A stretch of DNA of 64,000 nt from Amoebophrya sp. A120 (lineage: Eukaryota; Protista; Dinoflagellata), in the NCBI GenBank assembly GCA_905178155.1, contig CAJINV010000002.1, forward strand, positions 11,720,591 to 11,784,590, given 5' to 3'. Shown here piece after piece: positions 1 through 47,000 of this stretch. The first letter of the stretch is position 1, and the number at the start of each line of letters is the position of its first letter. The notes under the pieces are model-generated. The model saw only the letters and a list, made by a program, of their open reading frames with translations. It had not been told where the DNA came from and made no database searches. The position numbers and the translations under genes are program-made.

Positions 1-3000
1 CGAAGTTCAGCGCCTCGTCCATCGCTTTGGTGGTGCCCGCTCCGCCGAACGTGGTGATGTCAAAGTCGGTTTGCCCGCCGCGGAGCCCGAGCTCCACCAT
101 GGAGATCACCAAGCGGATGCGTTGGTTAGCCACGATCGGTGCCTGGATGTTGATCGAGGCCCCGACCGGGGGGTTCAGCGGGTCCACGATCGCGCCCTCC
201 GGGTTCAAACTCAGCGGCAAGGCCGCCGATTTGAAATCAAACCCTGGCGGATTGTTGGCGACCAGCCGCACCTCGGACGCGTCAGAAACCGGCGTAAACT
301 CGACTGTGATCTCACTGAACGCGCGGGCGGCCTGCTTCGAGCCGGTGAGCGATATACTGACGCTGGAGAGCTGAGGCAGGATTTCCCACGAACGAATCAC
401 CTCACTGGAGAGAATCTGGGCAGTGGGTTGCTGCGACAATATGGTGCTCCACTCGTACACGCCCGCCGAGGTGTCGGTGCCTGATGATAAATTTTGAATG
501 AATGTCGTGCCTTCACCGCATCGCGAACCACCAGAGCGACGCCATTTGATCATTCAAGTGTACTATCGCCATTTGATTTCTTTTCCACCGCTATCAGACA
601 AGCCTCAACAACATCAAAAGAGGACTAAAAAAAATAAAAAACGTCGCACCTAGTAGCGCATCCAGAAAGCAGTTCCACGTGGCTCCCGGAAGGGCACATG
701 GAGGATGGATAATGGACTTGTCAATGCCTCGCCAGTGCCAGATGCGGAAAAAGTTTTCAAACAAGAACGGCGTCTGCGAGGGATTTCTCGTATCAATGCT
801 CAGTTGGAATTGCGTGTCCTTCTCGTGCTGTACGTTTTTTTGATGATTCGAATAAATAAAATTTCAAAGAACTTGTGGGAGCAAGGCGAATGGTGTGAAA
901 CATCTAGCATGCTGGACGGCAGTGCACAGTTTTCGAAATTCGCATTCATTGTTGAATTAAAAAAAACATCAGTATAAGCAATTATTGTACCGCGATGCCC
1001 CCCATTGCGGCCGTCTGAATTTCAAACATCATCAAATTCCTGGTGCAGCGCGGTCCGGTTCGGTGACCGTTCGGCAGGGCAGCCATGTCTCCAAAGTTCT
1101 TCTGGGGGTCCAGCTGCTGCGCAGCGATGGTTTCCAGCGTTGGCAGCCACTTAAAGGCGGAGCACTGTTTCCGCGCCGGCTCGGCGAACTTGGACTCCAG
1201 CTTGAAGCCCGTGGGGGCCTCGATGACCACGATGTCACCCGGGTCCACCCGGTTCGGGAAGGCGAACGTGAAAGTTAAGTCCCGCACCTCCATCATGCCG
1301 TTGCGGACCTGCACGCCAGATTCGTCGCGGTTGACCACCATGGGCACGACGAGGGGGGGCGACCCGCTCCGGATCTCGATCGTGACCGGGTTCACCATGA
1401 AACTCGTCACGTCCGACTCATCCAGCGCCCCGGCGGCCGCGGCGGTCTCGTCCACGAACGACTCCAGCTTCCACACGTACTTGTGGTTCGTGCGCTCCTG
1501 CAGCGGGTTGTTCACCTCGATGTACTATCAAATGCAAAAATGTCTAGGTCTGGAAGAGTGCATGCTTGTCATGCTTGTCTGGCATGATTCTCAAATCTGT
1601 CATGCACGTTACCCAAGAGCGCCACTTTTCTGCCATGCAGAAACGCAGTTTGTCATGCAGAATAGGCAACACCTAGAAGCTCAGAAACTTGTCATGCTGC
1701 GCCAGCACTTGTGGCCTGCTCATGATACGCCACCCAGCATCACAAGTTTCCAGACCCAGACATTTTTGCAGTTGATATGTACACCCGGTAGTCCCGCCCC
1801 GTCTCCATGGAGGAGCCGATCAATTTCAGGTTCGTGATCTTGTCGTCCGTCTGGGACACGCGGCAGCTGGTCTCGTCCTGGCTCCAGCGCCGGCCGAAAT
1901 TCGTGCGCCCCTTCTCGTCGATCCAGTCCAGCTCCTCCACGTGGGCCGTGCACTCGAAGTTGGCGGCGACGAACCGGAAGTTCTGCTGCTGCAGCGACTG
2001 CGCCGCTGCGGTCACGCGCAGAATCTATCCTGAGGAAAAACGTCCCCACACCAGAGTCAATCTGCAACACAAATCTCCAGGTTTTGGGAGTTCTGCATGA
2101 CAGGCTTCCATCTGCAGTGTAGGGCTGGCTAGCAAGTAAAGCCGCACGAGAAAGCCACTTCCTCATCCTGTTTACAGCATTACAAATGCCAGAACACGAC
2201 TGGATATGCCTCTCATGGAGATGCGCATGACAAATGTCCCTGTCCTTGCGCATTTGCATGACAACTCTGGGGTGGGGATGTTTTTACATAGGATAGAATC
2301 CCGTTGATCGGGACCGTGTTCCACGGGCGGAAGGTGAACTATGGCGCTCTCAAACGTTACATTCTCAACTGTTACACGATTTGTCATGCAAAATTGCAAT
2401 TAGTTATCAACACGATCAAGCTGCCTCGCATGACAAGTTTTCGCCGCACTAGATAGCATTATAATCTGCGCCAAACTTGTAATGCAAAAGGCGCAACTTT
2501 CCGCCTTGGATTTTTGCCATTCTTGCATTACAAATCCATGTAACAGTTGAGAATGTAACATTTGAGAATCCCATATGAACCGCACCGGGTTTGACACCGG
2601 GATGCTGTCCGTCGCGGCCTGCCGTCGGGCGGTCGACACCGGCTTCACCTCCAGCTGCGTGAAGGTCCACAGCGTGAACCCGACGAACGCCATGGAGGAC
2701 TCGTCGCTCACGTCAATCGTCCACGTGTTCGGGTTCGGGGTCACCGGCGGATTCGCCAGAATCCCTATCCTAAACGCGTACACGTCGTTGGCTGGAGTGA
2801 TTGTTGTAGGTATTTCGAGAGAACGTTTGCACACAAAAACTACTTGACATCATCTTCTATTTGAATTTCGATTCTACTTCTGCAATAGCACTAGCAGTCA
2901 CGGTTACAGTAACTGTGATCTTTTGTTTGCCAAACCAAGAACTCAGAAAGCGTGTATATTGAATTTCCTCAAAAATTATACCGACTAAAAACGGGCTGTG

Positions 3001-6000
3001 CTTGTTGTGGGTGTTCAACCCACGGCGTTGCTTTTCCGCCTTTTCCTCCAGGAACCGTCGCGCGTCTGGCCCCTCGATCTGCAGCGTGGCCTGCGGTCCC
3101 GGGCCGCCGACGCACTTCGTGACCTTGACCTTGTAGGGCCACACGGCGTAGGTGGGGGGCCACTTGTTCCCGTCGCCGAACACCTTGTCCTCGTCCACCA
3201 CGACCGTGGGTAGACAGTCCCCGTTGAAGATAAACCCAGCGGGCCCACGGAGCTTCAGCTCCATGCAGCGGGTGTACCCCGGCTCGATGTTCGTGCACCG
3301 ACTCTCGCTCGCGTCGTTGGCCATCTTGAAAACGAAAATCAAGTTGTTGCGCTTCAGCGGCCGGTCGTTCCGCTCCGTGGCAACCCGCTGCGCCGTCGTC
3401 GTCTCTACCAGGGCGGCCTCGGTCAGCTTCGTGTTCACCGAGAAACCCGTTGCAGCGATTGGGGTGTCGAGCTGCTGCGCCGTCGTGCGCGGGGCTACCA
3501 TCTGCGAGTACGTCGCAAAATCCCAACATTGTGTGTACCTGAAGCGAAATTGGTTTTCAATAGATAACAAAGTACTGGACGTCGAACACCTGACGAATAC
3601 TGTTGCAGTCTCTTCCGAAAAGAAAGCATGCCAACATGCAAGCAGAACTACTTAATCGGCATTTTGATGAAATAGTAAAACGAAGACTTTTACCCACAAG
3701 AACTTGACGGAGAGACTTCCTGCACCACGGGATTCACGGGGTTGATGAACAGCAGCGAGAATGCATACCGTGCACCGGGGAGTCCACTTGCCCCTGCGGT
3801 AAGCAGCAAGACTGGCTTCGTAACCTGAAGATTGAGTCGCAAAAATGGGCCAATGCCTTTGCATTTTATTTCGATTTCCCTTTGATCATAATAAATGCTG
3901 CACACAAAATACAACAAACTGGTCGATTTATTTCAAAACGCACACAGTACAACCTTCGTACCGTTCCACTGGACCCCGCCACTTGGGTAGTGCTTGTGGA
4001 GACCACGATGTCGCTCGGCAAGCTCTGGTAATCGGTCCCCTGCGTCTTGACCGCGGGCATGATGGTTTCGTGCATGACGACGAAGCCCACCGGTCCGACA
4101 ATCTCCAAGCCACCGCCTTGTGGCACTGGTGTGACCGTCTGGATTTCGAAGGTCAATACGGATTCCTTCCCGGCGACGTTGGTCGAGTAGTCGACCACGG
4201 CGTTCACGAGAGATGATACGCCAACGAAAGGCACCACGCCGCCGAATGGTCGCTCCGCGAGGGTGGCGCCATCGTACCCGATTTCCACGTAGTAGTAGGC
4301 TGGCGACATCGTTGGGCCGTACATGGGCACCAGCACGTTGCACGTAAAACTGTAGAACTCAGTACCCGCGGTGCTGTAGGTCCACGTGCCCGGTGTGTCA
4401 AATTGAAGTACGTGCTCCGCGCCTGGAAGAACGGTCGGCAATCCGCCACCCGGCCAGTCAGCGTTAGGAAGCTGGCCGTTCAGCCTGTGAATTGTGTGGG
4501 AAATAGGTACAAACTTGTCGACTCATCCTCGCGCTCCTTCATTATCTGTCACCATCATCATCATCATCTAGCCTGCACAGAGTAGCGCGCACAAAAATCG
4601 CCAACAAAAGGAACAAAAAAAAAACCACACGAAAAATCTACCGTGGCGCGAACTCCGCTTGAACGGCGGCGGCCTGCTTGTAGCCGAACTTGACCGACGG
4701 ACGCCACTGGAAGCCCGCGGGCCCCGAGATGCGCACCTTGACGTTGGTCAAACTAGAGTAGAACTTCATGAAGAACACGTCGATATCCGTGCTCCCAGGT
4801 TTGTACACCCCGTTCGCCGTGTTGATGGTGACCCGCGGACCGGTTTTCCCCTCCGGCATATTGGACAGGTCGTCTTCGAACAAACCGTAGGATACGTTGT
4901 TCATGCCCATGGAGAAGGGTACATTTTCCTTGGTTCCATCAATGCGCTGCTTGACGTAGTCCAGCGTGTACAGCCGCCACTCCTGCGTCGACGCGTACGC
5001 GAAGGGCGCCGTGGCGGTGATCTTGAAGCCGTACTTGGTGTTCGCCTGCATGATCCCGTTCGCCCCGACCAGCGCCCGGTTGAAGGGCGTGGGTTCGTAC
5101 ACGCACTCCCGCACGCCGCCGGCGATAAATTCGGTCGCCACGTGGTTCTGCGACTGCGCCAGCCGCGCGTAGTAGTTATGCGGCAGCGCCTCGGCCACGC
5201 AGGGGTTCGGGAACGAGAAGCCGTGCCGGAGACTGGTCAACGCGGGTAACGGGCTCTGGTCCTTGGGGGCCTCGATGGCGACGTACGACATGTACCCAGC
5301 TGATTGCTCGGTCTTGAAGAAGACCAGCAGCTCGTGGTGCACGATTCCCCGTCCCGTGTTCGTCGCCCCGACGAGGGCCGACGGACTGATCACCGCCTCG
5401 GTCAGAAACCCTAACACCGCCACGTTCGCCGTGTAGTTCGACTCCAGAGCTTTGAATCGCATCGGCGTCGTGTGCAACAACGTCTGGTACTCACCTGTTT
5501 TATTCGTGGTCAATGTTAACAATTCGTCTCATTGCAATTTCTTTCGTCCTTTATTTCTTTAGAAGAACGACTCGGTCGAGCAAGCTTTGACAGTTTTAAG
5601 CATAAACAAAACTTCCAAGAAACAATTCTGGTCGCGATTGACAAATAAGTCACAGTAAAAGCACCTTTTCCCGAGATGGTGAGCATCCAGTCGTTCTCGG
5701 TGTCGTTTTTCTGCATGGCAACCGAGGGATTGTCGACCAGAAATTTGACCATGATCGCGCTGCCCCGGTACAGTATTCCGTACTGGTTCATTTTGAAGTA
5801 GCACGTCGTCACGTCACCCGGGGCGTTCTCCCACCCGTGGGAGTTCGTTGGCGCCGGCGCCGTGTAGGTCGGCAGCACCACGCGCGTCGTCGGGGTCCCG
5901 CGGCCCTGCGGCAGCGTGTGGTTGATCAGGTTCAGGGACGTCTCCGCGGCCCAGGGGTTGTACTTGTCCGTGGCCAGGTAGTTCATTTGCCCGGTCTCGT

Positions 6001-9000
6001 CGATCCCCATCTGGTTGGGCACCTTGCAGGTGTACCCCTTGGGGAACTTCACGGTCAGGTACGCGGAGGCGATTTCGCCCGTGGCTGCCAGGTTCGCGGC
6101 AAAGGAGGTGATGCCCAGCACGATCTTCACGTACAGCACGTTGTCCGTGTCGCCCTTGAATGGCTTCTGGTTCCCGTCCCCGTACACGTTCACGATCTTC
6201 GCGATGTTCTGTCCGACGTCCGGCTGCTTCCAGAAGTAGTTGCCGCTGGTCCGGATGTAATTCGGCTTGTTGTCGCCGACGTCCGTGACTTGGCACCCCG
6301 CGCGGGTCGGAAAGAAGCCCTTGTTGGGGATGGTGACCCCGGAAATTTCAAACGTCTGCGTGATCTGCCCGGGGAACTGCGCGGACTTCGGCATCGAGGT
6401 CATGGCACCGCCCGGGTCCAGGTTGCTCCCCGACAGGGTGCCCCCGGGAAGACGAATCTTGATGATGTTGTTGGAGCTCGCGGGTTGCTTCACCAAGTTC
6501 ACGTCATTCTGCCCGGTGAACTGCGCCACCACGGGCTCCCCGATGCACTTGTCCGTCGTGGACCCGTATTTACACACGGTGGACGAAGCCGGTGCGTTGG
6601 CACAGCGGACGGAACCTGGAGAAGTTGTGTGGGTCGGTTCTTAGTAGAAACCTTTACGGAACGAAAAAATCATGTGTAGTCAACATCTTGTTCGATAAAC
6701 TGCAAATACCACTGAAGAGAAAATCTATCTAGCACTTTGACGAAAACTGATCAGCAAAAATTTGATCAAGAATACAGCTATCGCCGGTTTTCCACACGGT
6801 GATTGGCTGCAAGTACAGGCGGACGATATAGCCCTCCTTGATGGGGTAGGTGGACTGTGCGGCGAATTGGAAGAGCAACTTGTCCGCCTGGGCGAGCTCG
6901 CGCAAAAAGTTGTTGCCCCCGAGCAACTCGCACCCGATCGGCTCCGCGAAACGTGGCGTGGTCTCGTCCGTCGCCGTGTCGCGCTTGACCGGCTGCCGGT
7001 TGAGCGCCGCAATCCCGCGCTCGATCGCGCGGTAGGGATTCACGCTGACGTCGTCGCTGGTGAAGATCTCTAGGTACTCGCCGCCCTTCTGCGCCGCGTG
7101 CAGCTCCCCGCAGTTGCCAAAGTTCTGCGTGAGGTCGCACTTGAACTCGCCGTTCATGACCACCATGTAGTCCGTTTCCGGCTGCAGCCCGTTCTTCGCG
7201 TCGAAGGCGATGTACAGCTCCCGAGTGGACCGCCCGTTGGGGTCGCTGGGGTCCAGCGGGTACCGCTTGTAGTAGCACCCCCGCGGGAGCGGAAAGCCCT
7301 TGTCCACGTCGTCGCCCCACAACTCGATGAACAGCTTGCCGCACACGGCCTGCGTCGCCTCGGCGCGGTCGTCCTCCGTGGTGGTGTCCACGATGGGGGT
7401 CGCGTCGAAATCCGTCTGGTACACCTCAAACTTGGTGTTGTCCTTGAACAGAAACTTGATCTCCATCGGGCCCTGCGCCGCCTGGTAGCTCTTGCCCGTC
7501 ATCGACCCCGCCGTCTTGAAGGAAATCAGCACGGGCGCCTTCACGTTGTACAGCTTCGTGGTCATCTGCACGGCGGCCACCGACATCGGGTCGGACGCCT
7601 TCAGCGTCAGCTTGCCGACCTCGGTCACGTACTTACCCACGTTGGACCCGTAGTGCCAGCACACCTGAGGAGACAAAAAGAGTCTGACTCTCGTCTAAAC
7701 AAGTAAATAATGGACGCAAACGAGTCTGGCAACGCGCCACGCTAGTAGACACGACATATCAAAAAGCAGCGTGAAGTCATCTAAATGTGAAAAAAAAACA
7801 TTCAGTTTAGATACCTTCATGTTCTGAATTTCGCGCTCGCCCTTGATTTCCAGTTTTGTTGTGGCCTTGTTCACCCGGCGCCATTTGCCGTAGTTCACGC
7901 CGTTCTGCGTGTTGAAGATGGGGCGGCCCACGGTCGGGGACGAGCACGCGTTCGGATAGCACTGCCTCGGAAACCCGACCGGGATGCGCCAGAACTTTGG
8001 ATCGTTGTTCGGATCCGGCTTGACCGTGTGCGCGACGATGTACTCGTCCGTGGCCCGGTCGTCGTTCCCCGTGTAGTCCGCGTAGTTGTAGCTGCCCTTG
8101 AGCAACGCCAGCTTCTCCGGGGTGCACTGGTAACTGGTGGGGTCGCAAGAGATGTTGTCGCCGAGGACGATCTGGTCCCCCTCCACGAGCGGGTTCCCCG
8201 ACAGGCCCCCGGGCACCTCGAAAAACTTGATCTGCGTCTCCGTGTCCGAGATCACCGTGATCTTCTCGATCTCGTTCGGCGGCTTGCAGTTCTCGAAGTG
8301 CGGGTCGCACTCCGTGTCCGAAGACAAAACCTGCGTCTTCAGGTCCCCGTTGACGGCCGAATTCACGTCGCCGACCTGGGTACAGCTGCTGGGGCAGCCC
8401 AGAGACAAGTACGTGTAGGCGTAGCTGCCGCGGTCCGGGTTGCCCCCGTTGTCCGTGCAGGAACCGTCGGGGTGGATGATACGCAGCTTGTTTTCGTGCG
8501 CGAGCCCGAACCCGGTGTAGGTGAGACTGAAGTCCACGTAGGTGGAGAACTCCCACCGCTCGCCGCCAGAAGGACCCTTGATGGTGGTGCGCCCCGCCAG
8601 CACCCAGTACAGCCCGTTGTCGCTGCACCCCGTGGTGGCCGCCCACTGGCAGTAGCAGACCGCCACGATACCCGCCTGCTTGATCGTGATCGAGTTGGTC
8701 AAAGACCCGGTGTTGAAGATCATCTTGTTTTTGTCCGCCGACACCCCGCCGGTGGTCCGCGTACCCCGGTAGGCGGAGACGGCGTTGGCCTCGGAGTTCA
8801 GCCCCGACTGAATCAGCTTGGTATCGTACACCGTGGTCCGACACTTGTCGTCGTCCATGGTCAGGTCCTGGTCCGGGACGATCTTCAAAATGCCCGTCTC
8901 GGTCAGGCCCATCACGTCGTAGTCGTCGGGCTCGCGCCGGAACCCGAGGATACCGCCCTCCTCAATGTACTGGACCGCCCACGCGGACGGCGTGGAGGCG

Positions 9001-12000
9001 GCGGCGTACGCCACGGACACGAACCGGAAGGCCGCGAACCGGAGCTGCCCCACCTTGAACCAGTTGTCCGCGTCCGCGGCGTTGGTGCTGGTGCACGCGG
9101 AGTCGCAGTAGCAGATGTCGAACATGATCTGGTCGTGCTTCTGCACCCGCTCGTAGAAGGCCGAGTCGTAGTTGAACATGAACCCCTGCTTGTACGTGGT
9201 CGTGCCGCCGGCCAGCGGCGGGAAGTCCTTCACCTCGCTGCCCGCGCCCCCGTTCATCGCCGTGATGTCGCTGGGGTTGGTCAGAATCGGCTTGCCGCCG
9301 GGCGTCGGGTACACGGTCACTCCGTGCGCGGGCCCGGTCGCGCGACACCGGTTGTTGGCGTCCCAAACCGACTTGTCGGTCTCGATGTCCACGGTCTGCA
9401 GCTGCATCACGATTTTCACGCGGTTGTCCGTATTCTGGATGCACGCGTGCTTGGGACACTGGACGCGCACCTTGAAGTACGTGCTCGGGGCGACGCCACT
9501 GTAGTCTGGGTCGCAGGACGCGTCGTTGCTGCGACAGATCTTGCTCAAATAAAAGTTCACGATCCCGATCTGCTGCTTATACCTGAGAAAGAGAATTGAT
9601 AAAGAAATTAAATCGGGACACCAATCTTCACAATCGAAGAAGTAATTCATTCCCGGTGTTCCGGACGTCATTTTCGAAGCACAACCGAGCTGCTCATTCT
9701 TGGACCACATGATACTACACTTCCTCGTCAACAAACTATGTTTCAACATGATGTTACAGAACTCGGACTCCTCTCTATCATCAACATATACCTCGCGAAG
9801 TTCCCTATCACGCTGGGTTTTGTGCATCCGGAGCCGAAACTGCACCAGCAAAGCCCGACCGTGAACGGCACAAATGTGGGGCCCGCGAGGTTGTTTTTTG
9901 TCGCGGGTAGCCCGAAATTGACCGTTGTGGCGTCCTTCAGCTTCACCGCATACTCGCCGGCCGCGCAATCCATACCGTACTTACACAGTTTCGTGCTCGG
10001 CGTACCTCCACAGGGGGACGCCGCCGCGGCCTGTTCTAGCGACGTGCCGGCGGTCGCGTAGGTGTATTCCGCCGTCCAACTGGCCGGATAGAACACGGAT
10101 GTCCCTGGCGGATTGGTATAGTCACCCTCGAAACCCTGTTGGTTTGTCGTGGCATCCTGCTTTGCAAACAGGCCGCCGAGGTCTTGCGTCTTGCCCGTGT
10201 AAGCCAGTTGCGTGTTGGCCACGACGCTAGTGGCGCCACCAATGATACAGTTCGACGGGTACTTGTTGGCGGTGCCGAAGGTGATGTACTTGTTGGCCGC
10301 ATTGTTGTAGCGGTTCTTCAGCAGAAAGCAATGAAACTTGTGCTGCACGTCCAGCATGCACGTAGCACTGGGCTGCCCCGTGCAGAAACCGGTATGGAAA
10401 TAGCCGTTCACAAGCAAGAACCCGCGCCACAGCTGTGCATTGTCCCAGGTCCCGTCCACGGACCAACACAGCTGGAACACACCGCCCTGCTTGAACGTGA
10501 GCCTGTGAAGGAGAAGAAGTTGACTCAGAACACTGCATGGATAGACATTTCATCAAAACCCGAAACGAAAACACGAAACTGAAAAAATGCAAACAGCATC
10601 TAGATGCAAACCGCATCTTGTTCCTGGAGAAATCATCAGTACCCGTGCCCTGCTGAGGTGAGGGTTGTTGCGGTGCCCGTTGTTCCGTCTAGCTTGTCTA
10701 TTACCGTCGTGGACGTGCGAACAAATCCCCCGAGGCCACCGCCCGCGCACCATACCGTGGGTAGTATGGCGCACTCCAAAACAGTCGCAGCCCCGTCTTT
10801 GCATGCCGTGGGGACGGTCATGCCGACGGTGGCAGTTACCGCATGACTCACGAAACGGATCTTCATATTGGTGGACGTCAGTGCCCAGTCGTCTCCCGCG
10901 TTCTTGATTTCGAGTTTGATCCCCGTGATCAGCACACCGGCAAACAGATTGGTCGTACCGGTGGCACTTGTGGCGACGATGCTGGTCGACGCGGTGCCGT
11001 CGTAGTTTACGAACGCGTAGGTTGCTTCGCCCCAGTTATTCGTGGTGGGCAGTGTGGTGGCACCGCCTCCCGTTCCGTAGGATACCAGCTGTCGCCGCAT
11101 GCGCTTTTCGAAAAAAGGCTCAAAGAGGTACCGCTTTATTGCGTTGTAAACGCCGTCGCGGTCGCTTGCGTCTTTGCCGGGTGCACCGCCATTTTCGCTG
11201 CTCAGCAGGGTTCGTCTCCTCGCACTCTCTCGGTCGTAGTAGTAGCCCTCGCGTATTATGGTTTTCGCCGCCGCTTTACCACCTTCTTCCTCGTCGGCAG
11301 AAGAGGTTGCACCGTCGGCGTTCTTACTTCCGAGGCTAACCTTCAGGTTCAATTGGTTGGTTTCTGTGTCGAACGATACTTCGTCGACCGTCGCCTGCTG
11401 CTCCGGATTCTGCTTTTTCCGCCCTGGCTGCTCCGCGAACGTGGTAAAGAAACTGCTGCCCCCCGCGAGGAGCCCCGCCGCGGCAGCAAGATACGAAGAG
11501 AAAAAGGGCTTTCTTCTGCGCTTGCGCGGTCGAAGCAGGTGAGTGGAACTTTCTTGCGGAAGATGCACTGTCTGGTTGTTTCTCGCAGCTTCGAATCCTC
11601 TGCCAGGCTGTATTGACGACGGTCTGGTTCCGCCGTCGCGCCACCGGTGGCTACAGTTTGGCCACGGTGCGGAGACACGCAAGCGGTCACGTCGCGCTTC
11701 GTCTTTACATCTTCGATTAGGTCCTGGCTCTGCGTCACCGTCCAGGTGCGCAGCGGCAGCAGGCGTTGGCGTTTTTCCACCAGTTTGGACAGGTCTCTTT
11801 TTGCATTTGGATCCGCTGACTATTGACCCTTCGTCCCTTAGTCTCTTTTGTTCAGGCTTCATCGCCGCTTCTGCCCCTGCCTGCGTAGCGTGGAAAGTGC
11901 ACTGCGCTTCGGGTTGCATTAGCGATGTTTTACTTCTGAAACGTCCGGTGTCGTCTCGCGTAAGTTGTCGCGTATTTGATGGTTTCCTACGCAGCGCCGA

Positions 12001-12813
12001 GGAGATGTAATCGCTTTGCTTCTGCGAGAGTTTGTTCGCGCTTCTCGTATCATCGACCGAAGACTGCAAAGCCGCCACGGCGTCCTCCCCTTTCCGAGGT
12101 CCTTCTGAACGCAAGGACGGACCTGAAACCTGGGAAGAAGGTCGCGGGTTGTTTGCTCTCCCACCGCTCGGGTTGCAATTCGCGTTCTTGCGCCGAAGCG
12201 AGCGGAGAGTTCGTGCATCGCATGTCGCAAGTGAGCCCGCGGGGCGCTCTGCTCCTCGTTCGCCTTGACAACTCGCAGCGCTGGTCGAAAAAGAGTTTGA
12301 GGATATCACTCCAGTCGGCGATGGAAAATGTCGATTTGCTGTTTCATGAAGTGTTGATGAGGTCGCGGTTCCGTCGAATGCGCTGACACACTCCGAGCCT
12401 CCGCGTTCTCCTATTTTGGCCGTTACGGGATTGGAAACACCATGAGGAGTTCCCGCAGCATAATGTTGCGATCTTCTCGCAGGGGGAGGCGCAGAGGACG
12501 AGGAGCTCCGTATACGGTGCAAAAAACCCCCCAACTCATACATATCCAAGAGAGTTTTCGTGGGCGTGCTGCAACGTGGCACGAGCAGGTACCTGTTTTT
12601 ATCGCCAACGTCACGAAGAGGCCGTCTATTCCTTCTAGTGGTTCTTTCTAATATTGCATCACGCCACGAAAAGATTAACGACCAGGCATTGGCTGTCCGA
12701 CGCGAGCTGCTGCGAGCTTGTTTGCCGTGATTTGTGGCTGCAAGCTCGCGTGCACAAGTGCGCAATCGTTCATAACATAACACATCTCTGCGAGAAAATT
12801 TTGTTTTGGGCAT
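1..12813 (-). CDS. Giant multi-exon secreted/surface-type protein, beta-rich with Cys-containing modules (>3000 aa; 3' end runs off the window; start codon uncertain)
   Basis: The minus-strand ORFs join in frame across predicted GT-AG introns at 10503-10642, 9583-9791, 7665-7814, 6616-6775, 5495-5664, 4485-4641, 3825-3961, 3539-3693, 2792-2981, 828-990 and 481-649, plus three TIR elements (2340-2575, 2026-2295, 1526-1777). A hydrophobic segment (FFSSYLAAAAGLLAGG) lies near 11.5 kb. Recurrent motifs include ICYCD/VCYCQ, LCW/VCW and I.GP.GF. Confidence 0.8.
1526..1777. mobile_element. Introner/MITE family A copy 1 (252 bp), non-canonical intron in the minus-strand gene
   Basis: 30-bp TIR tatcaaatgcaaaaatgtctaggtctggaa / ttccagacccagacatttttgcagttgata (2 mismatches). 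TSD tgtac at 1521-1525 and 1778-1782. Removal joins GRDYRVY-IEVNNPLQ in frame. About 90% identical (manual count) to 43992-44243. Confidence 0.93.
2026..2295. mobile_element. Introner/MITE family B (270 bp)
   Basis: ~32-bp TIR tatcctgaggaaaaacgtccccacaccagagt / actctggggtggggatgtttttacataggata. TSD gaatc at 2021-2025 and 2296-2300. Removal gives NTVPINGILRVTAAAQ in frame. Confidence 0.92.
2340..2575. mobile_element. Introner/MITE family C (236 bp)
   Basis: Long (~50 bp) TIR tatggcgctctcaaacgttacattctcaactgttaca... / ...tgtaacagttgagaatgtaacatttgagaatcccata. TSD tgaac at 2335-2339 and 2576-2580. Removal gives VSNPVRFTFRPWNT in frame. Confidence 0.92.
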
Positions 12814-13950: not shown

Positions 13951-14273
13951 AGGGCGGGGGAAGGGCAGGGAAGGGGTCGGGAGAAGGCAGGGAGACGAGA
14001 GGAGACTAGGGAGGTGCTAGGGAGGGGCTAGAGAGGGGCTAGGGAGGGGCCAGGGAGGGGCTAGGGATAGGGAGGGGGGTAGGGAAGGGGCAGGGAGGGT
14101 GTAGGGAGGGGGGTAGGCAGGGGGTAGGGAGGAAGTAGGGAGGGGGTAGGAGGGGGGTAGGAAGGGGGTAGGAAGGAGCTATGGGGGACATGGAACACCT
14201 GGAAAATTCCAGGAAGGGGGGTAGGAAGGGGGTAGGAAGGGGTTAGGGGGGCATGGAACACCTGGAAAATTCC
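13951..14273 (+). repeat. G-rich purine tract (agggaggggct / agggggtagg units) with a 22-bp direct repeat
   Basis: Degenerate 10-11 nt G-run repeats with G-quadruplex-type runs. catggaacacctggaaaattcc occurs at 14189-14210 and 14252-14273. Confidence 0.85.
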
Positions 14274-14379
14274 GGAGTGTTGTTTTAGCGGATTTCTCCG
14301 TATTAGAATGGCCCACGATATCACTATGAGAGTCATTTCATGCGTATGCGCTCCCTCACATACCAAAACGCCATCCACG

Positions 14380-14930: not shown

Positions 14931-15069
14931 TGATCCACATATACTGTTGCGATACAACCAAAGCACGTGCATTATTCTTTGCATTTTCACCAATTACAGG
15001 CGTCCAAATGAAGAAAAACGCGGAAACCGATAGGATGCAACTTCTCAGCTCATTTTCCACGCTCACCAT

Positions 15070-33964: not shown

Positions 33965-34777
33965 ACTGCTCAAGGCGAGCCGTAAAGGAACTTAGCGCAA
34001 AAACACAAGTAAGTACCCCTTGATTGTTGTTTGTGCGACACATTTTACGGATATAATCTTCTAGTTGTGTGTGTTTTCATCTTTTTGTTTCAAGTTTTTG
34101 CTTTCAGGACCAAACAAAATGTTTTTCGCACCAACACCGCGAGCAAGCTGTTTCTAAAAGAAAAATCGAGCGAAGCGAACTAATTCGAAGGTGTGTTTTC
34201 GCCACTTTTTGATTGTAGTGTTTCTTTGTCGGCGGTCGAAATCTTGCAATTGTAACGACCAGAAAAGTTGTACTAGTTCGTGGACAATCTTCGGTACCGG
34301 AAGAAAGGCAGAGCAAATTTACGAAATGATCCCAAAGTCAGGCGGAGATCCAAATCGAGATCTGGAAATAGAAAGCGATCTTCGAGGCCTGTTGAGATCG
34401 ATTCTCCAAGGTTCAAAAAAGTATTGGCCATGTCGGTTCGTTCCCCGTAGATCGGTTACGTTTTCTATTGCAGACGTGCCCGTGACCTGATTCTGAAATT
34501 GGTGAAGCCACACAATCTCAATTCGCATCCAAGTGTTTTATTTCCTTCTCTTGCAGCCGAATTTCAATTTGATAACGCTACGCTAGTTTTTGATGATTCG
34601 GTTTTTCACTTGAAGTCGTAAAACGCAATATTAGAAGATAAAAAGTAAGACAATTTTAACATTAATTTGAGCCAGATCAAGAACTGTTCTTGATCGGAAA
34701 AAATTATTGCACATAGGACATAAAAATTGACCAATTGCAGAAGTTGGAAAGAGATTGAATGCTTGTTGGGAAAGAGA

Positions 34778-35266: not shown

Positions 35267-36347
35267 AAGACAACTAGGATCTCGTAACACGGGCGGCAGA
35301 TTTCATCCCGACGGGAGATGGTGAAAATGGATGGTTCCAGATGACGCTGCGAAGCTTCAACATCTATGAGTTCTGTTTGTGCCTTGTAGAACAAGAACCT
35401 AACTGGATAGATGCTGATAAGTGTTGTTGCAACAAGGAACTCAAGGATGTTGAGAAGATCCCCCACGACGAAGCGACGAAGTGATTATCAGTTGTCGAAT
35501 CGAGCGGACATACTGCGCTGCGTTGTGATGGTCGCCTAATGTAACGAGGAACCAGGGAAAACGAAAAACAATGATGCGGCACCACGCAGAATCCCCTAAG
35601 AAAGTATAACATATGATATCCCAGGCGGAGGAGAAGAAATATCGAAAAAGCATCGAACATTAAAAGAACAGCTGTAAGAAAATGTTGTCAAACGGTGCGT
35701 GGAGGAACGACGGGTAGTTGCGTGGTATGCTCACCTCCGTCGCACTCCGGAGAGGACTGTACGACTACCGTCGTGCCTGCACCACCGGGCTTAATTGAGT
35801 GGAAAGTACATGACTAGATCTGGACGGTGAAGAGAAATACAAGTACGCACTACGTACTTTTTACTCCTGCACTGATGTCCACCGCATTTGTAGTTGAGCA
35901 GTAATGGTGGAGCCTCGAAGTGCGCGCCTAGCTGTGTTGCGTAAACGCAGTGTGCACGCGCGTTTTGTGGGACCACACAGCAGACAAGGTTTTGATGAGA
36001 CACAGCACGCTACAACAAGTCTTTGGAAAAAAGAAAGCACATCCTATTGACACTTTCGTCGAAGTCGCAGATGCGCAGCGCTTTCTAAAAAGGAGAAGCA
36101 ATCCATTCGGACGAGGTGCATGTTCTTTCCTGGTGAACTCGTGTGGTTCTCGTAGCGCATGATCCAGAAGTGATGTAGGAGAGAAGGAGAACAAGCGGCC
36201 TGGAGTACATTACAACTACTCGTCTTTGTCGTGCTTCAGTTTCGAGCGTGTAAAAAAGCGTGTTTTTCTTTGTACAATGAATTATATGCGCAGGAAACTG
36301 ATGCTGATTTGGTTTTGGAGCATACGTAAAACAATTTTCATCCAGGA

Positions 36348-37622
36348 ATGAGTCCGGTTACGGGAGACAGATGTGAAGATGAAAATGAGGTGGTGATAAT
36401 TCTCACACGGGAGACGGGCAGCAACGCCAAGCTGCAAGATGCGGTACTTGAGGGGATACACCGACGTGATGCAGAACTTGGACAGAAAATCGCAGTGCGG
36501 TTCCTGGAAGCGCCGGCCGTGTGTTTCCGTCCGCTGCCAATCGAGCGGAAGTTGCTCGAGGAAGCCGACGGAGAAAGATGCTTTTCTTGGGTGTGCCTCA
36601 CCTCGCCCGAGGCTGCGAGGCAATTTTGTCGTGCGCTAACCGCAGACCCAGGGCTGTTTCTCGCTTCTCTCCTAGGTGGAACGACGGGCCGTGCGAGCGG
36701 AGATGAAACCGCCACTGCTAAACATGTTGAGGCGGCAAGGATAGCCTGTGTGGGTGAGGCGACAGCGGAAGCGCTGCAAGTAGCTGTTGAGACGATTTTT
36801 TCTTCTGCTGCAGGAAACGAAGCTGGTAGTACCAATTCTGCTCCTGCCACACCCGCGCAGCGGCAAGAAAAAGTTGAGAAGCAGCTGCAAAAAGTCAAGC
36901 AGTGGGTGGAAACGCACAGTGCCGACTGCTTCATTCCCCCAACCGCAAATGCTAAGGCGCTCGGGAAAACGCTGCCGATCCGAGGACAGAAGGAGCCTGT
37001 CGATGGTGAGGGCTCCGCGCATTTTCCAAAAAATGTCAACCGAGTCCTTTTGCCCTGCAGTTCAGAGCAAAGGCCCGATTTAGCGCAGGGATTGACTTCG
37101 CGAGGCTTCGCCGTCGTGTCTCTCGCTACGTACGCTACGGGTGCGGTCGAAAGTCCTCCGTCGGAACTGGTGGAAAGCGGTTGCTTATATACAGGGCCGA
37201 CACACACCGTCGTGCCGAAGAGCACCCGGCCCACGTGTTTGTGGACATTTGCGTCCCCCTCCGCTGCGCAGGCGTGTTCGCGATGGTGCGAGCAGGGGAC
37301 AGATTTGCAGACGGGCTCGGTGCAGGCCGCTGCCTGCATAGGCGAAACGACTGCGGAAGCCTGTCGCAGGTTCTTTCCGCACGCAGAGGTTTTTTGTCCG
37401 GACGACAGTCCGGGGGTAGGTCCGTGGGCGGAGACAATTCTAGCGTGGCTCGCTACTAATACTAAACATGGCAAAGAGCAGCGGACTGGAGGTTGTAGTG
37501 CAGGAACAAGAACTGTAGTAGAAAATGATGATGTTCCGACGGCCCAAATGAGGAAGGGGGGGGCCGCCGAGAGCGTCCGAACTGCGTCGGGGGGGCGTTG
37601 CACGATAAGGCAAGCGGCTTAG
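36348..37622 (+). CDS. hemD: Uroporphyrinogen-III synthase, plant/algal type
   Basis: Motifs ILTRETGSN, WVCLTSPEA, ACVGEATA, PPTANAKAL, GLTSRGFAVVSLATYAT, ASPSA and ACIGETTA appear in the order typical of UROS/HemD. Confidence 0.88.
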   Translation: MSPVTGDRCEDENEVVIILTRETGSNAKLQDAVLEGIHRRDAELGQKIAVRFLEAPAVCFRPLPIERKLLEEADGERCFSWVCLTSPEAARQFCRALTADPGLFLASLLGGTTGRASGDETATAKHVEAARIACVGEATAEALQVAVETIFSSAAGNEAGSTNSAPATPAQRQEKVEKQLQKVKQWVETHSADCFIPPTANAKALGKTLPIRGQKEPVDGEGSAHFPKNVNRVLLPCSSEQRPDLAQGLTSRGFAVVSLATYATGAVESPPSELVESGCLYTGPTHTVVPKSTRPTCLWTFASPSAAQACSRWCEQGTDLQTGSVQAAACIGETTAEACRRFFPHAEVFCPDDSPGVGPWAETILAWLATNTKHGKEQRTGGCSAGTRTVVENDDVPTAQMRKGGAAESVRTASGGRCTIRQAA

Positions 37623-39817: not shown

Positions 39818-41083
39818 CTTTCTTGCGACGCCGAACTTCAAAGACACGCCCATGTTGATTCTTGACAGTTAGAAGAGCAGCCGCCAAACGATGACAGCAA
39901 TTGCGAGCGAGGCGTTTGTTTCCTCGCCCGCGCCCTGTTGCTTCGCTCCGATATTTGAATTTGACCACTATCAGTTTGCATGCATTGCAGCACTTCTGCT
40001 GTAAAGTTTTTGTGGAGATGAAGGTCGTGGATCGCAGAAGATCAAAAACGAGAACGCGCTGTCATAAAGGGTTCTGAAATTCAAAGTAAGTAGTTTTGGT
40101 TTGCACAAAAGGAAATCTGAAATTCAATTCTCGGTTGAAAAAATAAATGCAACATTCTCACCAGATCGAGTTCCATTCACTCAGGTCTCATTCGTGTTTG
40201 ATCGCTCTAAAGAGGGACGAAAAACGTTGCCGGATCTAGGATCTTGCCAAGGAGGATGTAAGTTTCTGCATCGTGGCAGATTGGAAGCTAGCGCACGAAA
40301 TGTAAATGCGACCGTTCACCAGAGAAGAATCATCCGACCAGACTATTAGCATTTGAAGATCTACTTGTTTCATGGGAAAAGCAGAATAACGATGATCAAC
40401 GCAAAATTGACGATCGTATTCGTCCGTCGCACAATGATGGATAGGAAAAATGAAACACCAGCTTGTGTAAAAAGTATGATTTTTCTGGACAAGTTCTCCA
40501 GGGCGCCTTTAGACGTAGGTAGAAAAGACCTCATGATATGAATGGAGTGCTGACACGTTAGCCTAGCGATATTAGCCCGAAGTTGTCTTTATCACGAGTA
40601 TCAGATTAGTTACGTATACGTGATTCGCTTTTCCTTGTCGCGCTAAGTAAAGCACTTGCTATCCCCCGTTTCCATGCGAGAAGATCTATGTTGATCTTGC
40701 TTTCGTAAAGATCTCTATGTAGCGGCGACGTTTTGTGTAAGATAAGTGTCTGTTGCTAGCTATAGTTTAATGCTGCAAGAAGAACTACTAGTTCTTAGCT
40801 GTATTCCCATATTTCATGCGAACTGTCAGCCATTGACGGTGTTTTCTGGCGGAGGACTGTGACGCTAACGTCGAGTACATCCACCTAGTGAAGAAATCAA
40901 CTTATCTTTTACAAACTTCAGAAAGCGGAAAACAAGGCAAGGTCCTTAAAACCTGGGACTAACTGTAAGATGATTCTGCGGCAAGTTTACATCGTTACGG
41001 CTGCAAATCCAAGAATTTTGGCAACGTGTGCGCACTAGAAAGTTGCATGCTTCTAGCCACACACCGAAATTCCACCGTAGAAA

Positions 41084-44000
41084 ATGTACATGTTTGGTAA
41101 AAAAGGCCAACAGCAGCTGCAACACGCGAACAATAAGACCAGGAGCGGAGACGATGATGGCGTCGATGTTCCGAGTCGGAGGTCGAGCAGTCCGATAGCC
41201 ATGGGCCGGGAGAGCACGACCTGCTGCGAGTCGGATTCCGGGATGGAGAAAGTCGCATCCTGGGAGGTAAGGGATGTGGATTTTGCAAGCCAAGGAAGCG
41301 CAACAAGAGCGCGCGCTGCCAGCCGCGAAGATGCGAAAAACGCTGAGGATCGCCTGCTGCCGCGGAACCGTTCCTCTGCTCGCGAGACGGTGAGCTCGTA
41401 CGGCGGAAATTTGAAGAATGGACCGCCCCCATTCTCGCAGCGGAGCAGTCGCCGGAATTCCGTGGCGTCAGTGACGCCGATCGAAGGACGCGATGACGAC
41501 GTGAATTCTGAGCGCAGCGAAACGAGCATATTCATTCCCCATCACGACGGCTCTTCCGGCGCAGGTTTCGGTAGTGGGTTTTACGGGTCCATGATGCAGG
41601 ACCAGATAATGCAGACGCAGGGGAAGGCAGCCGTGACAGAAGCAGAAAATGCGGAACAAGAGGAGATGGCGCAGAACAACGACCACGATGCGCAAAAGCG
41701 GGTCAGTTGCACGGCGTCTTGGGGCTTTTGGACGTGGGCGGCGGTCGTGTTGGCGACCCTATCTATTGTGGGTGCGCTCGCGGTGGGTATCTTCTACCTG
41801 GTCAAGCACTTCCAGGGTAGTGGCGGAAGTGAGCAGAAGATGCAGCTGCTCCAAATAGCGCCCGAGTTTTCTTTCAAGGACCTGCTTCTGGCCATATCTG
41901 CATCCGCTGCAGTCAACAACGGCGGGGCTCTGCAGCAGCAGGCGGCGGCTGACGTGGATCCTGCCGCCCCCGACCAACCAGAAGCAGGTGTGCAGAGCGT
42001 ACACTTTTTGGCGCCAAACAGGTCGGTGCAGGGAAAGCAGACGGCGATGATGCACAGAGAAGCGACAGAGATGTCCACCGCGTTCCAACACCTCGCCCAG
42101 CACCCGCACGAGCACTACCCGGAACATTGCAAAGTGGGGAACAACGATCGGTTGACGCCCAACCAGAAGCTGCTTTGGATGCGGCTGGTGAACATGCCAA
42201 TCGGCCCACTGGATCGGTTGGGCGCCGAAGGGCGGGAGTCTGTCATCCGGGTGGCGGACGCTCGGAAAACGTCGCTGAAGGAGCTAAAGCAGCGACTCGA
42301 AGCCGGTCTCCGACAGCATGTGAAGAACCTGAAGACGTTTCTGAATTTATTCGTCGATGCGGCGGAGCAACAGCCGGGCGATTTGGAGAACTACGTGGAT
42401 GCCGTGCTGGAGCGCGCCAAGATTCCCGTTTCCGAAGTCGGTGAAAAGGCATGCATCGCGGAGCATTTTCTGCGCATGCTGCAGTTGATTTCGGAAAAGT
42501 TTGAGCGCGAACAGCAAGGTTCTACACCACAGGGAAACGTCGACCCAGACGGACCCAACGGGGAGACGCGCACTGCCACCGTCCCCCTGCTGGCCCTCAG
42601 TTTGTGCGACGAAAGCGAGCAGCTGGAGCGGCTGTGCGAAGACGACAACGTGAAACTTTCGAAACTGCTGGCGGCGTTGCCTCGCGACGCCACGTCGGTG
42701 AGCTCCGCGCAGCGCGAAGACGACTCCGGTGCGGGCGCGGGCACGCAGCGCCGCATTATTAAAGTGGCACTGGCACGCGGAGACGAGGACGATGGACCGC
42801 AGCAGGCAAACCAGGGCGCACTGCTGGTACCAAGTACGCCGGACCAGGGATGGGCCATCGGCGGATTCCGCTTCCGCTGGGCGCAGGTGGACGTGACGAG
42901 CGATACCGCGAATGTCGGCTCGGAGCCACAGTTTCGGGAGGAAAGCACCGTTTCCTCGATGCTGGACAGCATGAATGCCATCACGTGGGACAACGCCAAA
43001 CACAAGGCCAGAGTGCAGGTGCGGAAAAGCTTTGGTTTCTGTTGAAAAAGATAAACAGAACAAGTTTTGTTTCTGTTGATGATGCTGTTCTTAATTCTTG
43101 TTTACGACTGTGCATGTATGATGATGCATTTCGAGGGTATAATTGAGTCGGTGTATTTTGACCGAGTACCTGTCACAGTTTGTACTTTGTAGCAATCATC
43201 TCCTGCTGCCGCACACATGCTTCGTTTTTTTTGCTGAAAGTATGTTCATTTTTAATTTTCAAATTTAGGTCGTGTACCAGCGCGAGAACGACCAGCCGCC
43301 ATTGCAAGTCGTGGAGCAGAATTTCAGCCCGGACGAGGTACGCAGGCATTCGCAGGATGCTGGCGGCGACGTGGCTTCGATGCCCCCGTTGCAACAGTGG
43401 CTTCACTGGGCGAAGTTGCTCTTGTTTCGGTCGGCGGTGATCGCGCACGAAAAAGCCGTGTTTTTTGAACTCGAGGGATTCCCGCTGAACGGCGCCGACG
43501 CTGAGGGCAACACGTGGTTCGAGGTGTTGGGAGACGCGAACACCGTATTGCGGGAGACGGACGTGATCGCGCTGTCGCACGACGACCTAGCGTGGCACAA
43601 GATCTTTCGTCCCCTGTTCGCGGACTCCTGCGAGGGGGCGCGGGCGAAGCAAAACCCGAACAAACGCGGCGGTCAGCCGTGTTCGTTGGAAGAGAAAGCC
43701 ATTCCCTATGTGCAGTTCCAGGCGGCGGACGACAATAACGACATCCCGGCTCATTTTCAGTACATCGCCACCCACCGCACCCGCATCCGCGGCCGGAAGG
43801 CGAGCTGCGGGCTCGCGGCCGAGCCCCATCGCCAGTGCGTGTACTTTCGTAGCTTGAACGGCAAAAGGTATAAGATCCCGCTGCGCACCGACGACCACCT
43901 TCGGGAGCTGGTGCGGGAATCCGGTCAGGACCTTGTTGGCGCCGACTGGCGCTGGGTTGCGGCGCGGAAGGAGTTGCACCTCCACCACAAGTATCAAATG

Positions 44001-47000
44001 CAAAAATGTCTGGGTCTGGAAGAATTCGTGTTTGTCATGCTTGTCTGGCATGATTCTTAAATCTGTGATGCACGTTCCCCAAGAGCCCCATTTTTCTGTG
44101 ATGCAGAAGCGCAGTTTGTCATGCAGAATAGCCAACACCTAGGAGCTCAGAAACTTGTCATGCTGAGCCAGCATCTGTAGCCTCATGATGAGACGCCACC
44201 CAGCATCACAAGTTTCCAGACCCAGACATTTTTACTTTTGATAACAAGAAGGCGGCGGCAAGTGCGGCCGCAGCTCCCGTTGGATCAAACACTGCTGCGC
44301 CCCCACCGGCGGGGAAAGCGGTAGCGCCCGCGGCTGCCGGAAATGGGGCTGCCGTTATTACAATGAAAAATGCCCCCACCCCCGAACTTGCAAGCATTTG
44401 TATTGCAAATCTTTCCAAATGAAACATTCGCCCTCTTGCGTGTATCAGCATCACAGATTTCCGATCGTGAATAGCAAAAATTTGTATTGCAAAAGATCCC
44501 AGCAAGAGCGGTGCTTGTCATGCAAGCGATGCGAAACACGACTAGAATCTGCATCAGAAAGATTCGTACTCCTTTCATGCATGACAAAAAGCTTTCATTT
44601 GGAAACTTCGCATCACAAATTCTTGCAATTTCAGGGGTGGGGGGCATTTTTCACTGTGATAGCCGTTGTAACGAATCCAGGCAGTGCAGCTGGCGCAGGA
44701 CAAGGCGCGGCTGCACCGCCCGGAGCGGTGACTAGTGGAGTTGGACTCGGGACGGAGTTGACGCAGGCGGTTTCCAACGTAGCCAACGCCCTTTTCGACG
44801 GTTCTGGCCAACACGGGAACGGGCAAAGCCAGAGCGGCCAGAGCGGGCAGCTACTTACGACAGCAGGACAGGTGGTTGGAAGTGCGGCAGCTACCGCGGT
44901 CGGTAGTTTCGCAACGGGGCTCCAGCGGGGCTGGCAGGCTGGACGTACGGCACCACCTCCAGGCGCTATCGCAACCGCAGGGACAAATCCAGCGGCCGGG
45001 GGGGGCGCAGTTGGAGCCACGAACCCAGGTGCGGCCGCTGTTGCGGCGCCGGAAGGATTGGGGCAGCGCATGGCACAAGCGGTCGATAACCAAATCCCGC
45101 ACCTGGCAGCAGGGACCGAGGCCATCGCGGCGGCGGTGGGCGAAGGGGCAGTGGCCGTCTTGAGCGCCGCACGGCAGGGCGCGCTGCAGGGAGCGGGCTT
45201 GTCGTCTGCCGTCAACACCGGAGCCGCGGCCCCCGCAATTACTGGCACCGCCAACGCCGTAGCAACTCCGAATATCGGCAACGCAGCAACGCCGACCGGC
45301 AACGCAGCTTCGTCGCAGACGATGCAGGACTCGATCAGAGCACGGATTCCAGAAGTAGTAGAAGCCGTCCAGCCGGTCGCCGATATGGAGAGAAAAAAGT
45401 TTATCATAGTCACTAATTTGCAGGGTTTGCATTACAAATTTTCTTAGCATCACAAATTTTCCTTGTATTGCAGAAACACTAGGGAAATCCCTAATAAAGT
45501 TTGGCTGTGATGCATTTTTACGCATGACAATTGCAAAAATGCGCATCAGTGATCGTGACGAACTTTTTTTGTTTGATAGCCGAGGCGAGCGGCGCACTAC
45601 TACGAGCCAGCGCAATAGCCGCGGGAACTAGCGTTGCCAGAGGGCTTTTCTCGACCGCGGATCCTGCAGCCACAGTACCGGCATCACCGCAAGTAGCACC
45701 TCCGGAAACAGGGGGTACCGTGGCGACACAAGCGGGCGCGGGACTCGCGGGTGCACCGCCAGGACCAGTAGCGTCTGTGCAAAATGGCGCAACACCTGCC
45801 CCCGCGACCCCTGCGCAGACGACGCAGGAGTGGATCAGAGCACAAAGTCCAGTTGTGGTAGGAGCGATCGAGCCAGTTGCGCGGGAGGGCGGTGCATTAA
45901 TACGAGCCAGCGCAATAGCCGCGGGAACTAGCGTTGCCAGAGGGCTTTTCTCGACCGCGGATCCTGCAGCCACAGTACCGGCACCACCGCAAGTAGCACC
46001 TCCGGAAACAGGGGGTACCGTGGCGACACAAGCGGGCGCGGGACTCGCGGGTGCACCGCCAGGACCAGTAGCGTCTGTGCAAAATGGCGCAACACCTGCC
46101 CCCGCGACCCCTGCGCAGACGACGCAGGAGTGGATCAGAGCACAAAGTCCAGTTGTGGTAGGAGCGATCGAGCCAGTTGCGCGGGAGGGCGGTGCATTAA
46201 TACGAGCCAGCGCAATAGCCGCGGGAACTAGCGTTGCCAGAGGGCTTTTCTCGACCGCGGATCCTGCAGCCACAGTACCGGCACCACCGCAAGTAGCACC
46301 TCCGGAAACAGGGGGTACCGTGGCGACACAAGCGGGCGCGGGACTCGCGGGTGCACCGCCAGGACCAGTAGCGTCTGTGCAAAATGGCGCAACACCTCCC
46401 CCCGCGACCTCTCCGCAAACGACGCAGGAGTGGATCAGAGCACAAAGTCCAGTTGTGGTAGGAGCGATCGAGCCAGTTGCGCGGGAGGGCGGTGCATTAA
46501 TACGAGCCACCGCGATAGCTGCGGGCCGGAGCGCTATCGAGGGTCTTTTTCCGACCGGGAACAGTGGAGCTGCAGCACCTGCAACACGGACGGAGGACCC
46601 GGAAGGGATCGCAGCTACGGCCACGGTCGCGGCGCATGCCCCAGTCGCTGGGGGTGCAATCGCGCCGCCGGATCCCGCTGCGGTGCCTGTCGCCGCAAGC
46701 CCAGAACAGCGGACGACGGCAGAATCTATTGCGGCACAAATACCATACGCCACACAAGCGGTCGCGCCGGTCGCGACAGCGGCTGGACAACTTCTTCGCT
46801 CAACTGCGATAACAGCTGGGGAAGGTCTCGTGGAGGGCCTTGGCTTTACGACACGCGCCGGCACGAATCCGCAGGCGGCCACAAGCGCTGCTCAAGAACC
46901 GCAAGTACCCGCGACAGGCGCAGAAGCGTCCACCCTTGGTGCACCAAGTGAAGATCGTCCCGGACAAGAAGTCGGAGACCAGTCGTCGTCCGTGATAAGA

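Follow-up and report, generated by a model that had tools for sequence, protein, structure and literature searches.

Introner systems related to the Amoebophrya locus

Introner elements of the dinoflagellate Amoebophrya sp. A120 carry inverted repeats together with direct repeats of 3–5 nucleotides (nt), the A120 inverted repeat reading TAT, seven variable bases, and AAA (PMC7789003, Farhat et al. 2021), and the non-canonical introns of this organism average 240 nt (PMC7789003). No transposase is reported in A120 in that text (PMC7789003), and elements with terminal inverted repeats (TIRs) and integrase-like open reading frames have been reported from A120 in a study that lists diverse TIR introners and requires ends of the same orientation (PMC12130899); opposite-orientation matches are allowed in the introner pipeline of PMC9860276. 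The stretch analyzed here is 64,000 nt of the A120 genome (contig CAJINV010000002.1, positions 11,720,591 to 11,784,590; hereafter the window), in which two 252-nt elements of one family, designated family A (copies 1 and 2; Table 1), lie in the same genomic orientation within host genes on opposite strands (hosts 1 and 2).

No structural difference was seen between the elements studied here and the described A120 introner elements, with which they share TAT-N7-AAA repeats, short direct repeats, lengths of ~240–260 nt, non-canonical borders, GT-AG introns alongside, and co-oriented gene blocks (PMC7789003). Family A copies carry the TAT-N7-AAA inverted repeats, 5-nt direct repeats, and genome-wide repetition of A120-type introners, and family A-type elements show the TIRs, fixed-length target-site duplication (TSD), non-coding sequence, and random orientation of transposable elements of the miniature inverted-repeat kind (MITEs). 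Intron creation in either orientation has been reported for Polarella classes and for Aureococcus (10.1101/2020.10.14.339549; PMC10228655), and is not without precedent. The introners of Polarella glacialis and Aureococcus anophagefferens share the MITE-like TIR/TSD anatomy and differ in that they carry, or recruit from the TSD, a GT, GC, or GA start and an AG end, with a bias to one orientation (10.1101/2020.10.14.339549), whereas neither a filter for such dinucleotides nor an overall orientation bias was found here, and the elements do not conform to that type. Non-canonical introns of Fritillaria borealis likewise combine a TIR and TSD, a MITE origin, and non-GT/AG borders, and differ in their preferred AG-AC and AG-AT borders, TAC target, conserved U1 5′ end, and reported spliceosomal removal (PMC11282704; PMC13326754). 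The nonconventional introns of euglenids (PMC12501133; PMC11282704) resemble the present elements in variable borders, pairing terminal inverted repeats, direct repeats that blur the cut, a proposed MITE origin, and coexisting GT-AG introns, and differ in their CDG/CHG motif, offsets of 3 and 5–6 nt, purine at the exon start, circular product, and unrelated lineage. The euglenid signature N3-CDG...CHG-N5-6 is absent here, the end consensus being TAT(C/G)...AAA.

The element class is already published, and the orientation tally and target-site null presented below are an incremental constraint on an open mechanism. An orientation-versus-host-strand tally, a target-site null test, a bias at −13/+13, and an internal motif were not found in the accessible main and supplementary text of PMC7789003, figures aside; the word "orientation" is used four times in its main text and three times in its supplement, the visible instances concerning gene order, and "strand" is never used. 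That the direct repeats vary and the borders lack a signature is stated in the same source and already leans in this direction. The accessible part of PMC11453091 contains nothing on orientation, and later work on the splicing of A120 introner elements was not found in the openly readable literature, subscription journals (including Huff et al. 2016) lying outside the search.

Family A copies in opposite orientations relative to their host genes

The two window copies of family A are identical at 226 of 252 positions in an ungapped alignment, were returned by a repeat finder as a 252-nt direct repeat, and have the different TSDs TGTAC and ACAAG, in line with the original prediction of ~90% identity, one genomic orientation, and distinct duplications. 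When one copy is reverse-complemented, 106 of 252 positions match the other, essentially the terminal repeats; the interior is thus asymmetric and the orientation of the copies well defined. Both copies end in TAT...ATA and have TIRs of 30 nt each that are 93% complementary. Beyond the window, at least 18 more copies with at least 82% identity occur in the assembly of a relative. Summed contig depth over copy 1 in the public run X7 reached ~294,000 compared to ~45 elsewhere, a depth that does not equal copy number, and DNA-like contigs of X7 place family A ends 24–35 nt apart elsewhere in the genome.

Sequences of four public runs were aligned to positions 300–12500, with X1 and X4 (two samples of one study) flagged as probably RNA and X7 as DNA-like. 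Copy 1 was skipped as 257 nt in contigs of X1 and X4, and the two neighboring TIR elements of host 1 were skipped as well (Table 1), each of the three skips being the length of the element plus one 5-nt copy of the duplication. Six to seven cut registers fit each of these three RNA joints and none reads GT..AG, GC..AG, or GA..AG. From the ~13-kb contig that skips copy 1, 11 introns with minus-strand GT..AG borders are missing as well, and after joining, the minus-strand frame of host 1 is stop-free across 3,208 codons. These 11 RNA-verified introns (within 480–10641) are 137–209 nt long with a donor that is weak beyond GT, and have CAAY near the acceptor in eight cases and YTRAY in only two. 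None of the 14 joints (11 GT-AG introns and three TIR elements) was present in X7 contigs, and none of 3,295,382 raw reads of run X9 aligned to 300–12500.

The hairpin and direct repeat anatomy of such elements promotes reverse-transcriptase template-switch artefacts, and the RNA evidence consists of cDNA-derived contigs. The possibility that the skips are template switches of this kind, with no removal in vivo, is nevertheless most improbable: retention would destroy the frames of 3,208 codons in host 1 and 2,360 codons in host 2 and would shift the frame at 184 of the 296 elements in the locus set described below, one copy of the duplication is under coding constraint, and the element-skipping contig carries the full depth of the host 1 gene.

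Host 2 was assigned to the plus strand from its frame, its GT-AG intron, its upstream exons, and its neighbors, and with host 1 on the minus strand the two hosts are opposed, as had been predicted. Retention of copy 2 stops the host 2 frame after 262 codons compared to 1,707 upon removal, and the plus frame of the exons upstream of copy 2 beats the best minus frame by 33 and 115 log units under a codon model. Neighbors on both sides with Pfam matches (HemD and a glycosyltransferase) lie on plus, as do all four matched frames among 16 window frames scanned, the other 12 being without a match. A protein spanning the copy 2 junction had no match among 3,284 public candidates, which at 421–2,000 residues are shorter than the predicted host protein and so make this negative uninformative. 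An in-frame 300-nt tandem repeat (45589–46525; 3.1 copies, 98%) lies in the alanine/proline-rich part of this gene.

The claim that both copies are removed was borne out for copy 1 by the 257-nt skip in X1 and X4; copy 2 is likely removed from the plus-strand transcript, as judged from its frame. Excision at the DNA level in some cells or life stages, a copy 2 that stays in its transcript, or a wrong strand for its host would each undo this picture, and the RNA nature of X1 and X4 is no more than a guess and the strand score close to copy 2 is indecisive. Such scenarios are nonetheless very unlikely, as the X1 and X4 contigs also lack the 11 GT-AG introns, X7 lacks every joint, and frame, intron, and neighbor evidence put host 2 on plus.

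Orientation relative to host strand across loci

The tally of orientation against host strand called for by the original prediction was run on the window and on a locus set of at least 148 loci (L001–L148) from the relative's assembly, all with one assembly prefix and obtained from a metagenome scan with a 20-nt repeat motif, all locus tallies being among the matches listed. The set holds 296 unique elements, or 305 with the nine of the window. Host strand was called by a codon model on element-removed sequence, giving 154 elements with a high local margin and locus-wide agreement, 49 with a high margin only, and 48 agreeing at a low margin; the 45 uncallable elements are excluded unless stated. 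Local and locus-wide calls coincided in 154 of 158 high-margin cases, two models matched the assigned strand for 7/9 and 8/9 window elements, and left and right flanks called independently gave the same strand in 96 of 105 cases (142 ambiguous, 49 too short).

Family A was found in the two orientations relative to its hosts at 10:10 (20 copies at ≥82% identity, two of them in the window), with high-confidence locus copies at 7:3. Broader relatives had one orientation in 28 of 54 high-confidence cases and 44 of 78 cases. When families were clustered on interiors, 58 within-family pairs had the same and 63 the opposite orientation, and among the 27 families in which two or more members could be called, 20 occurred both ways. 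Three of 11 related pairs lying within one stop-free frame, for which no strand call is needed, were opposed, and sense and antisense copies of family A were equally alike (0.90–0.91; n = 16). Insertion in both orientations at equal rates is thereby shown, with no overall orientation bias found, and the predicted orientation independence held.

Flanks joined in frame at element length plus 5 nt in 88 of 96 cases, including 50 of 55 for lengths that are not multiples of three, and mismatches between the duplication copies were synonymous in 31 of 57 cases, compared to 0.27 expected if neither copy were coding. The in-frame flanks and these mismatches suggest that elements in the loci are removed. 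The cut could wander within the duplication: a synonymous excess was seen in the best-called genes (24/39) and not overall (38/79), relative to ~0.43 for a fixed cut (p 0.017 and 0.20 at the ends of the relaxed range), the strict set giving 18/23. Avoidance of lengths that are multiples of three, which nine of nine window elements had suggested, was ruled out, as 112 of the 296 locus elements have such lengths.

Location of the splicing signal

The target-site null placed each element anew at randomly chosen positions close by. Relative to it, locus elements were not enriched for registers with an AG end (66/134 vs. 0.484 expected), nor for GT-AG (8/134 vs. 0.041) or GH-AG registers (15/134 vs. 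0.109), and GT starts numbered 70/134 compared to 0.44 expected (p = 0.067). U2-type GT-AG or GC-AG borders do not describe family A, in which one of 20 copies has a GT..AG register and eight have no AG register; both window copies offer a TA..AG register and neither a GT..AG register.

These counts bear on the usual introner route, the one reported for Aureococcus and Polarella, by which AG and GH would come from the symmetric end together with the duplication, and insertions lacking them would be purged. Support for this route comes from an AG register in 7/8 window elements, duplications starting with G in 6/8 (giving ATA followed by G), the TA..AG registers of family A, and a slight deficit of sites with neither signal. 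It is improbable and already largely refuted, as AG, GT-AG, and GH-AG registers equal random expectation in 134–220 locus elements, GT..AG, GC..AG, and GA..AG registers are all lacking from the three skips verified in RNA, and the family A copies without an AG register remain. The ATA-plus-G junction as a recruited 3′ AG was rejected, the loci giving G first in 38/134 compared to 0.29 expected.

The transcribed strand of the interiors had no T/A skew (101 vs. 100 of 212), compared to +0.145 in the 11 canonical introns. Since there is neither an interior strand skew nor a splice-dinucleotide filter at targets, the ends are the only strand- and target-independent features, and the splicing signal very probably lies in these symmetric ends. 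What is disfavored is a branch point within the asymmetric interior. Whichever way an element lies, its 3′ end holds the 30-nt repeat, which includes a U-tract and words resembling branch sites, with YTRAY in the last 45 nt of 103/212 elements as transcribed and 113/212 reversed. Repeat positions 11–13 pair in 203–206 of 212 elements, compared to 132 for position 4 and 95 for position 7, and terminal stems were predicted in both orientations for four folded elements. The original prediction had placed the signals in the symmetric TIR or hairpin and had excluded a strand-specific branch point. The symmetric ends stand as the best reading, the choice between an RNA hairpin and two motifs read as sequence is not separated by equal numbers of G·U and A·C mismatches, and the exclusion of a branch point does not follow, as the repeat brings its U-tract and YTRAY to the 3′ end both ways.

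Probable insertion at the DNA level

Target sites had G at −13 from the duplication center in 62/153 cases (background 0.28) and C at +13 in 78/153 (0.26), mutually independent. This palindromic preference, which may be a transposase fingerprint, frequently has TGY around it, and in the window the two family A copies each have the G and the C. Codon phase of the insertions was biased (94/56/53 of 203), likely because the −13/+13 offsets coincide with first codon positions, rich in G, and third codon positions, rich in C. An internal motif, TGTVWTGC, occurs within all element families (e.g., at window positions 1567, 1598, 1651, and 1690) and in 303 of 305 elements, 236 of which have it on both strands, at a density of 15 per kb in elements compared to eight occurrences in the remaining 61,811 nt of the window. 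Its first copy lies ~30–45 nt from an element end and its spacing is mostly 31–32 nt, about three DNA turns, consistent with a putative transposase-binding repeat. TAT-N7-AAA was present at both ends of 249/305 elements (the finder having required TAT and not N7-AAA), direct repeats were perfect in 269 and had one mismatch in 36, and the mean skip length was 253 nt.

Candidate mechanisms of removal

The favored reading, held at about an even chance, is that family A is a non-autonomous DNA transposon of the Amoebophrya introner type that is cut from the precursor messenger RNA (pre-mRNA) by a modified major spliceosome reading the symmetric ends and not GT/AG. A transposase would insert the element at the DNA level, blind to the transcribed strand and choosing targets by the palindromic G(−13)/C(+13) preference. 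Either transcribed strand would then begin with TAT-N7-AAA and end with TTT-N7-ATA, could form a stem of ~30 bp, and would hold, close to its 3′ end, a U-tract as well as adenosines. Two cuts would fall at set distances from the stem base, distances that must sum to 5 nt if the mRNA is to be restored, and catalysis would fall to the U2/U5/U6 core, bypassing U1 and AG recognition. As regards the catalyst alone, the case for the spliceosome is evenly balanced. In A120, 83 of 89 spliceosomal proteins were reported with U1 small nuclear RNA (snRNA) not detected (PMC7789003), and Fritillaria TIR/TSD introns are described as excised by the spliceosome (PMC11282704). The original prediction had taken the elements as spliceosomal introns, a status that is putative here.

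Several observations count against this reading. The lariat, branch point, and cut positions of the spliceosomal step are hypothetical, several registers fitting each RNA joint, and at least one intron end has to be arbitrary sequence, which suits spliceosomal catalysis poorly and the euglenid type well. Transposase binding explains the conservation of the TIRs equally well, and G·U and A·C mismatches in the repeats numbered 109 and 113 and give no hint that an RNA stem is under selection, a weak test because most mismatches are inherited from a master copy. Sites with neither AG nor GT/GC were slightly rarer than expected (34/178 vs. 0.269; p = 0.018), as also in two further sets (27/134, p = 0.097; p = 0.047), an effect that with the excess of GT starts is a weak hint at most. 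One 279-nt family lies all one way (7:0). The putative removal of copy 2 and of the locus elements is read from reading frames, and the codon score within ±90 nt of copy 2 favors minus by 3.7 or plus by 5.1 depending on the model, indecisive because the downstream exon is alanine/proline-rich. Finally, U1 proteins are listed as present in A120 (PMC7789003 supplement Table S6), and the U1 snRNA may therefore only be divergent.

A less favored but serious contender retains the transposon origin and the symmetric end signal and assigns the cutting to a non-spliceosomal, euglenid-like activity that measures from the stem base and forms no lariat. The terminal dinucleotides of the present elements are arbitrary, Euglena nonconventional introns use a paired motif lying 3 nt and 5–6 nt inward of the cuts (PMC12501133) and reportedly form circles and no lariats (PMC11282704), and the undetected U1 snRNA of A120 (PMC7789003) also fits. 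However, a near-complete spliceosome handles the GT-AG introns of the same transcript, Fritillaria offers a precedent for spliceosomal excision (PMC11282704), the CDG/CHG motif differs from the motif here, and a candidate enzyme was neither sought nor found. Stated as a second splicing system of A120 that is lariat-free, ignores terminal dinucleotides and strand, recognizes only the symmetric TAT...ATA stem and the A/U tract belonging to it, and cuts by a ruler matched to the 5-nt duplication, the idea is tentative and somewhat doubtful.

Other elements and features of the window

The element finder, which requires TAT...ATA ends and a 5-nt direct repeat and gave one false match per 374,757 shuffled bases, returned nine elements in the window (Table 1). 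Family B forms a second opposite-orientation pair, with both of its hosts on plus. By chance alone ~4% of elements are expected to offer a GT..AG register, and among introns counted as "canonical", some of those that have inverted repeats may be cases of this kind, like the 116-nt element of Table 1. The two other spliced elements of host 1 are separated by just 44 nt of exon (2296–2339). A weak candidate for an old element lies in an AT-rich stretch at 34422–34640, with TAT...ATA ends, a perfect 5-nt repeat, and only 7/20 end positions paired. The switch from a minus-strand gene to a plus-strand block at 13950–15260 holds a G-rich 11-nt tandem array (14006–14273) and a C-rich inverted counterpart (15160–15255) with an AT-rich kilobase between them, possibly a divergent promoter or a G-quadruplex region.

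Table 1. Elements, duplications, and genes of the 64,000-nt window.
Feature	Position	Strand	Details
Family A copy 1	1526-1777	+ as element	252 nt; TIR arms 1526-1555 and 1748-1777; transcript is the reverse complement
TSD of copy 1, TGTAC	left 1521-1525, right 1778-1782	no strand	perfect, 5 nt
TIR/5-nt-duplication element, other family, host 1	2026-2295	no strand	275-nt RNA skip
TIR/5-nt-duplication element, other family, host 1	2340-2575	no strand	241-nt RNA skip
Host gene of copy 1 (host 1)	300-12500 tested, gene extends past both ends	-	11 GT-AG and 3 TIR introns, without which 3,208 codons are open
DOT1-like gene	16250-17005	+	Pfam match
Family B copy 1	19602-19909	in plus-strand gene	78% identical to 44356-44661 in reverse
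HemD gene	36330-37619	+	Pfam match
Host gene of copy 2 (host 2)	41081-49163	+	GT-AG intron 43035 (or 43041)-43269 and three TIR elements; ~2,360 codons after predicted removal, one stop
Family A copy 2	43992-44243	+ as element	252 nt; TIR arms 43992-44021 and 44214-44243; transcript has the sequence as given; removal likely from frame
TSD of copy 2, ACAAG	left 43987-43991, right 44244-44248	no strand	perfect, 5 nt
Family B copy 2	44356-44661	in host 2 (plus)	retention stops the frame at 297 codons
TIR element, host 2	45384-45578	no strand	retention stops the frame at 535 codons
DXD glycosyltransferase gene	50057-53008	+	Pfam match
TIR element in plus-strand gene	55123-55331	no strand	duplication copies differ at one base, the fifth (could map the cut)
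TIR element in plus-strand gene	58954-59069		116 nt; almost fully palindromic; sole one of nine window elements with a GT..AG register
Fringe-like gene	59071-61680	+	Pfam match

Implications for intron removal in Amoebophrya

The removal of tens of thousands of introns without GT-AG borders in Amoebophrya is a stated open question (PMC7789003, PMC11282704). The present results constrain the mechanism to one with a signal on both strands of the element, no AG or GT needed from the target, and removal of one 5-nt duplication, no more and no less. A family with equal rates of the two orientations also provides a natural control for a branch point within the terminal repeat. If a lariat-free ruler system were at work, it would make any coding insertion of these transposons harmless and would be convergent with the nonconventional splicing of euglenids.

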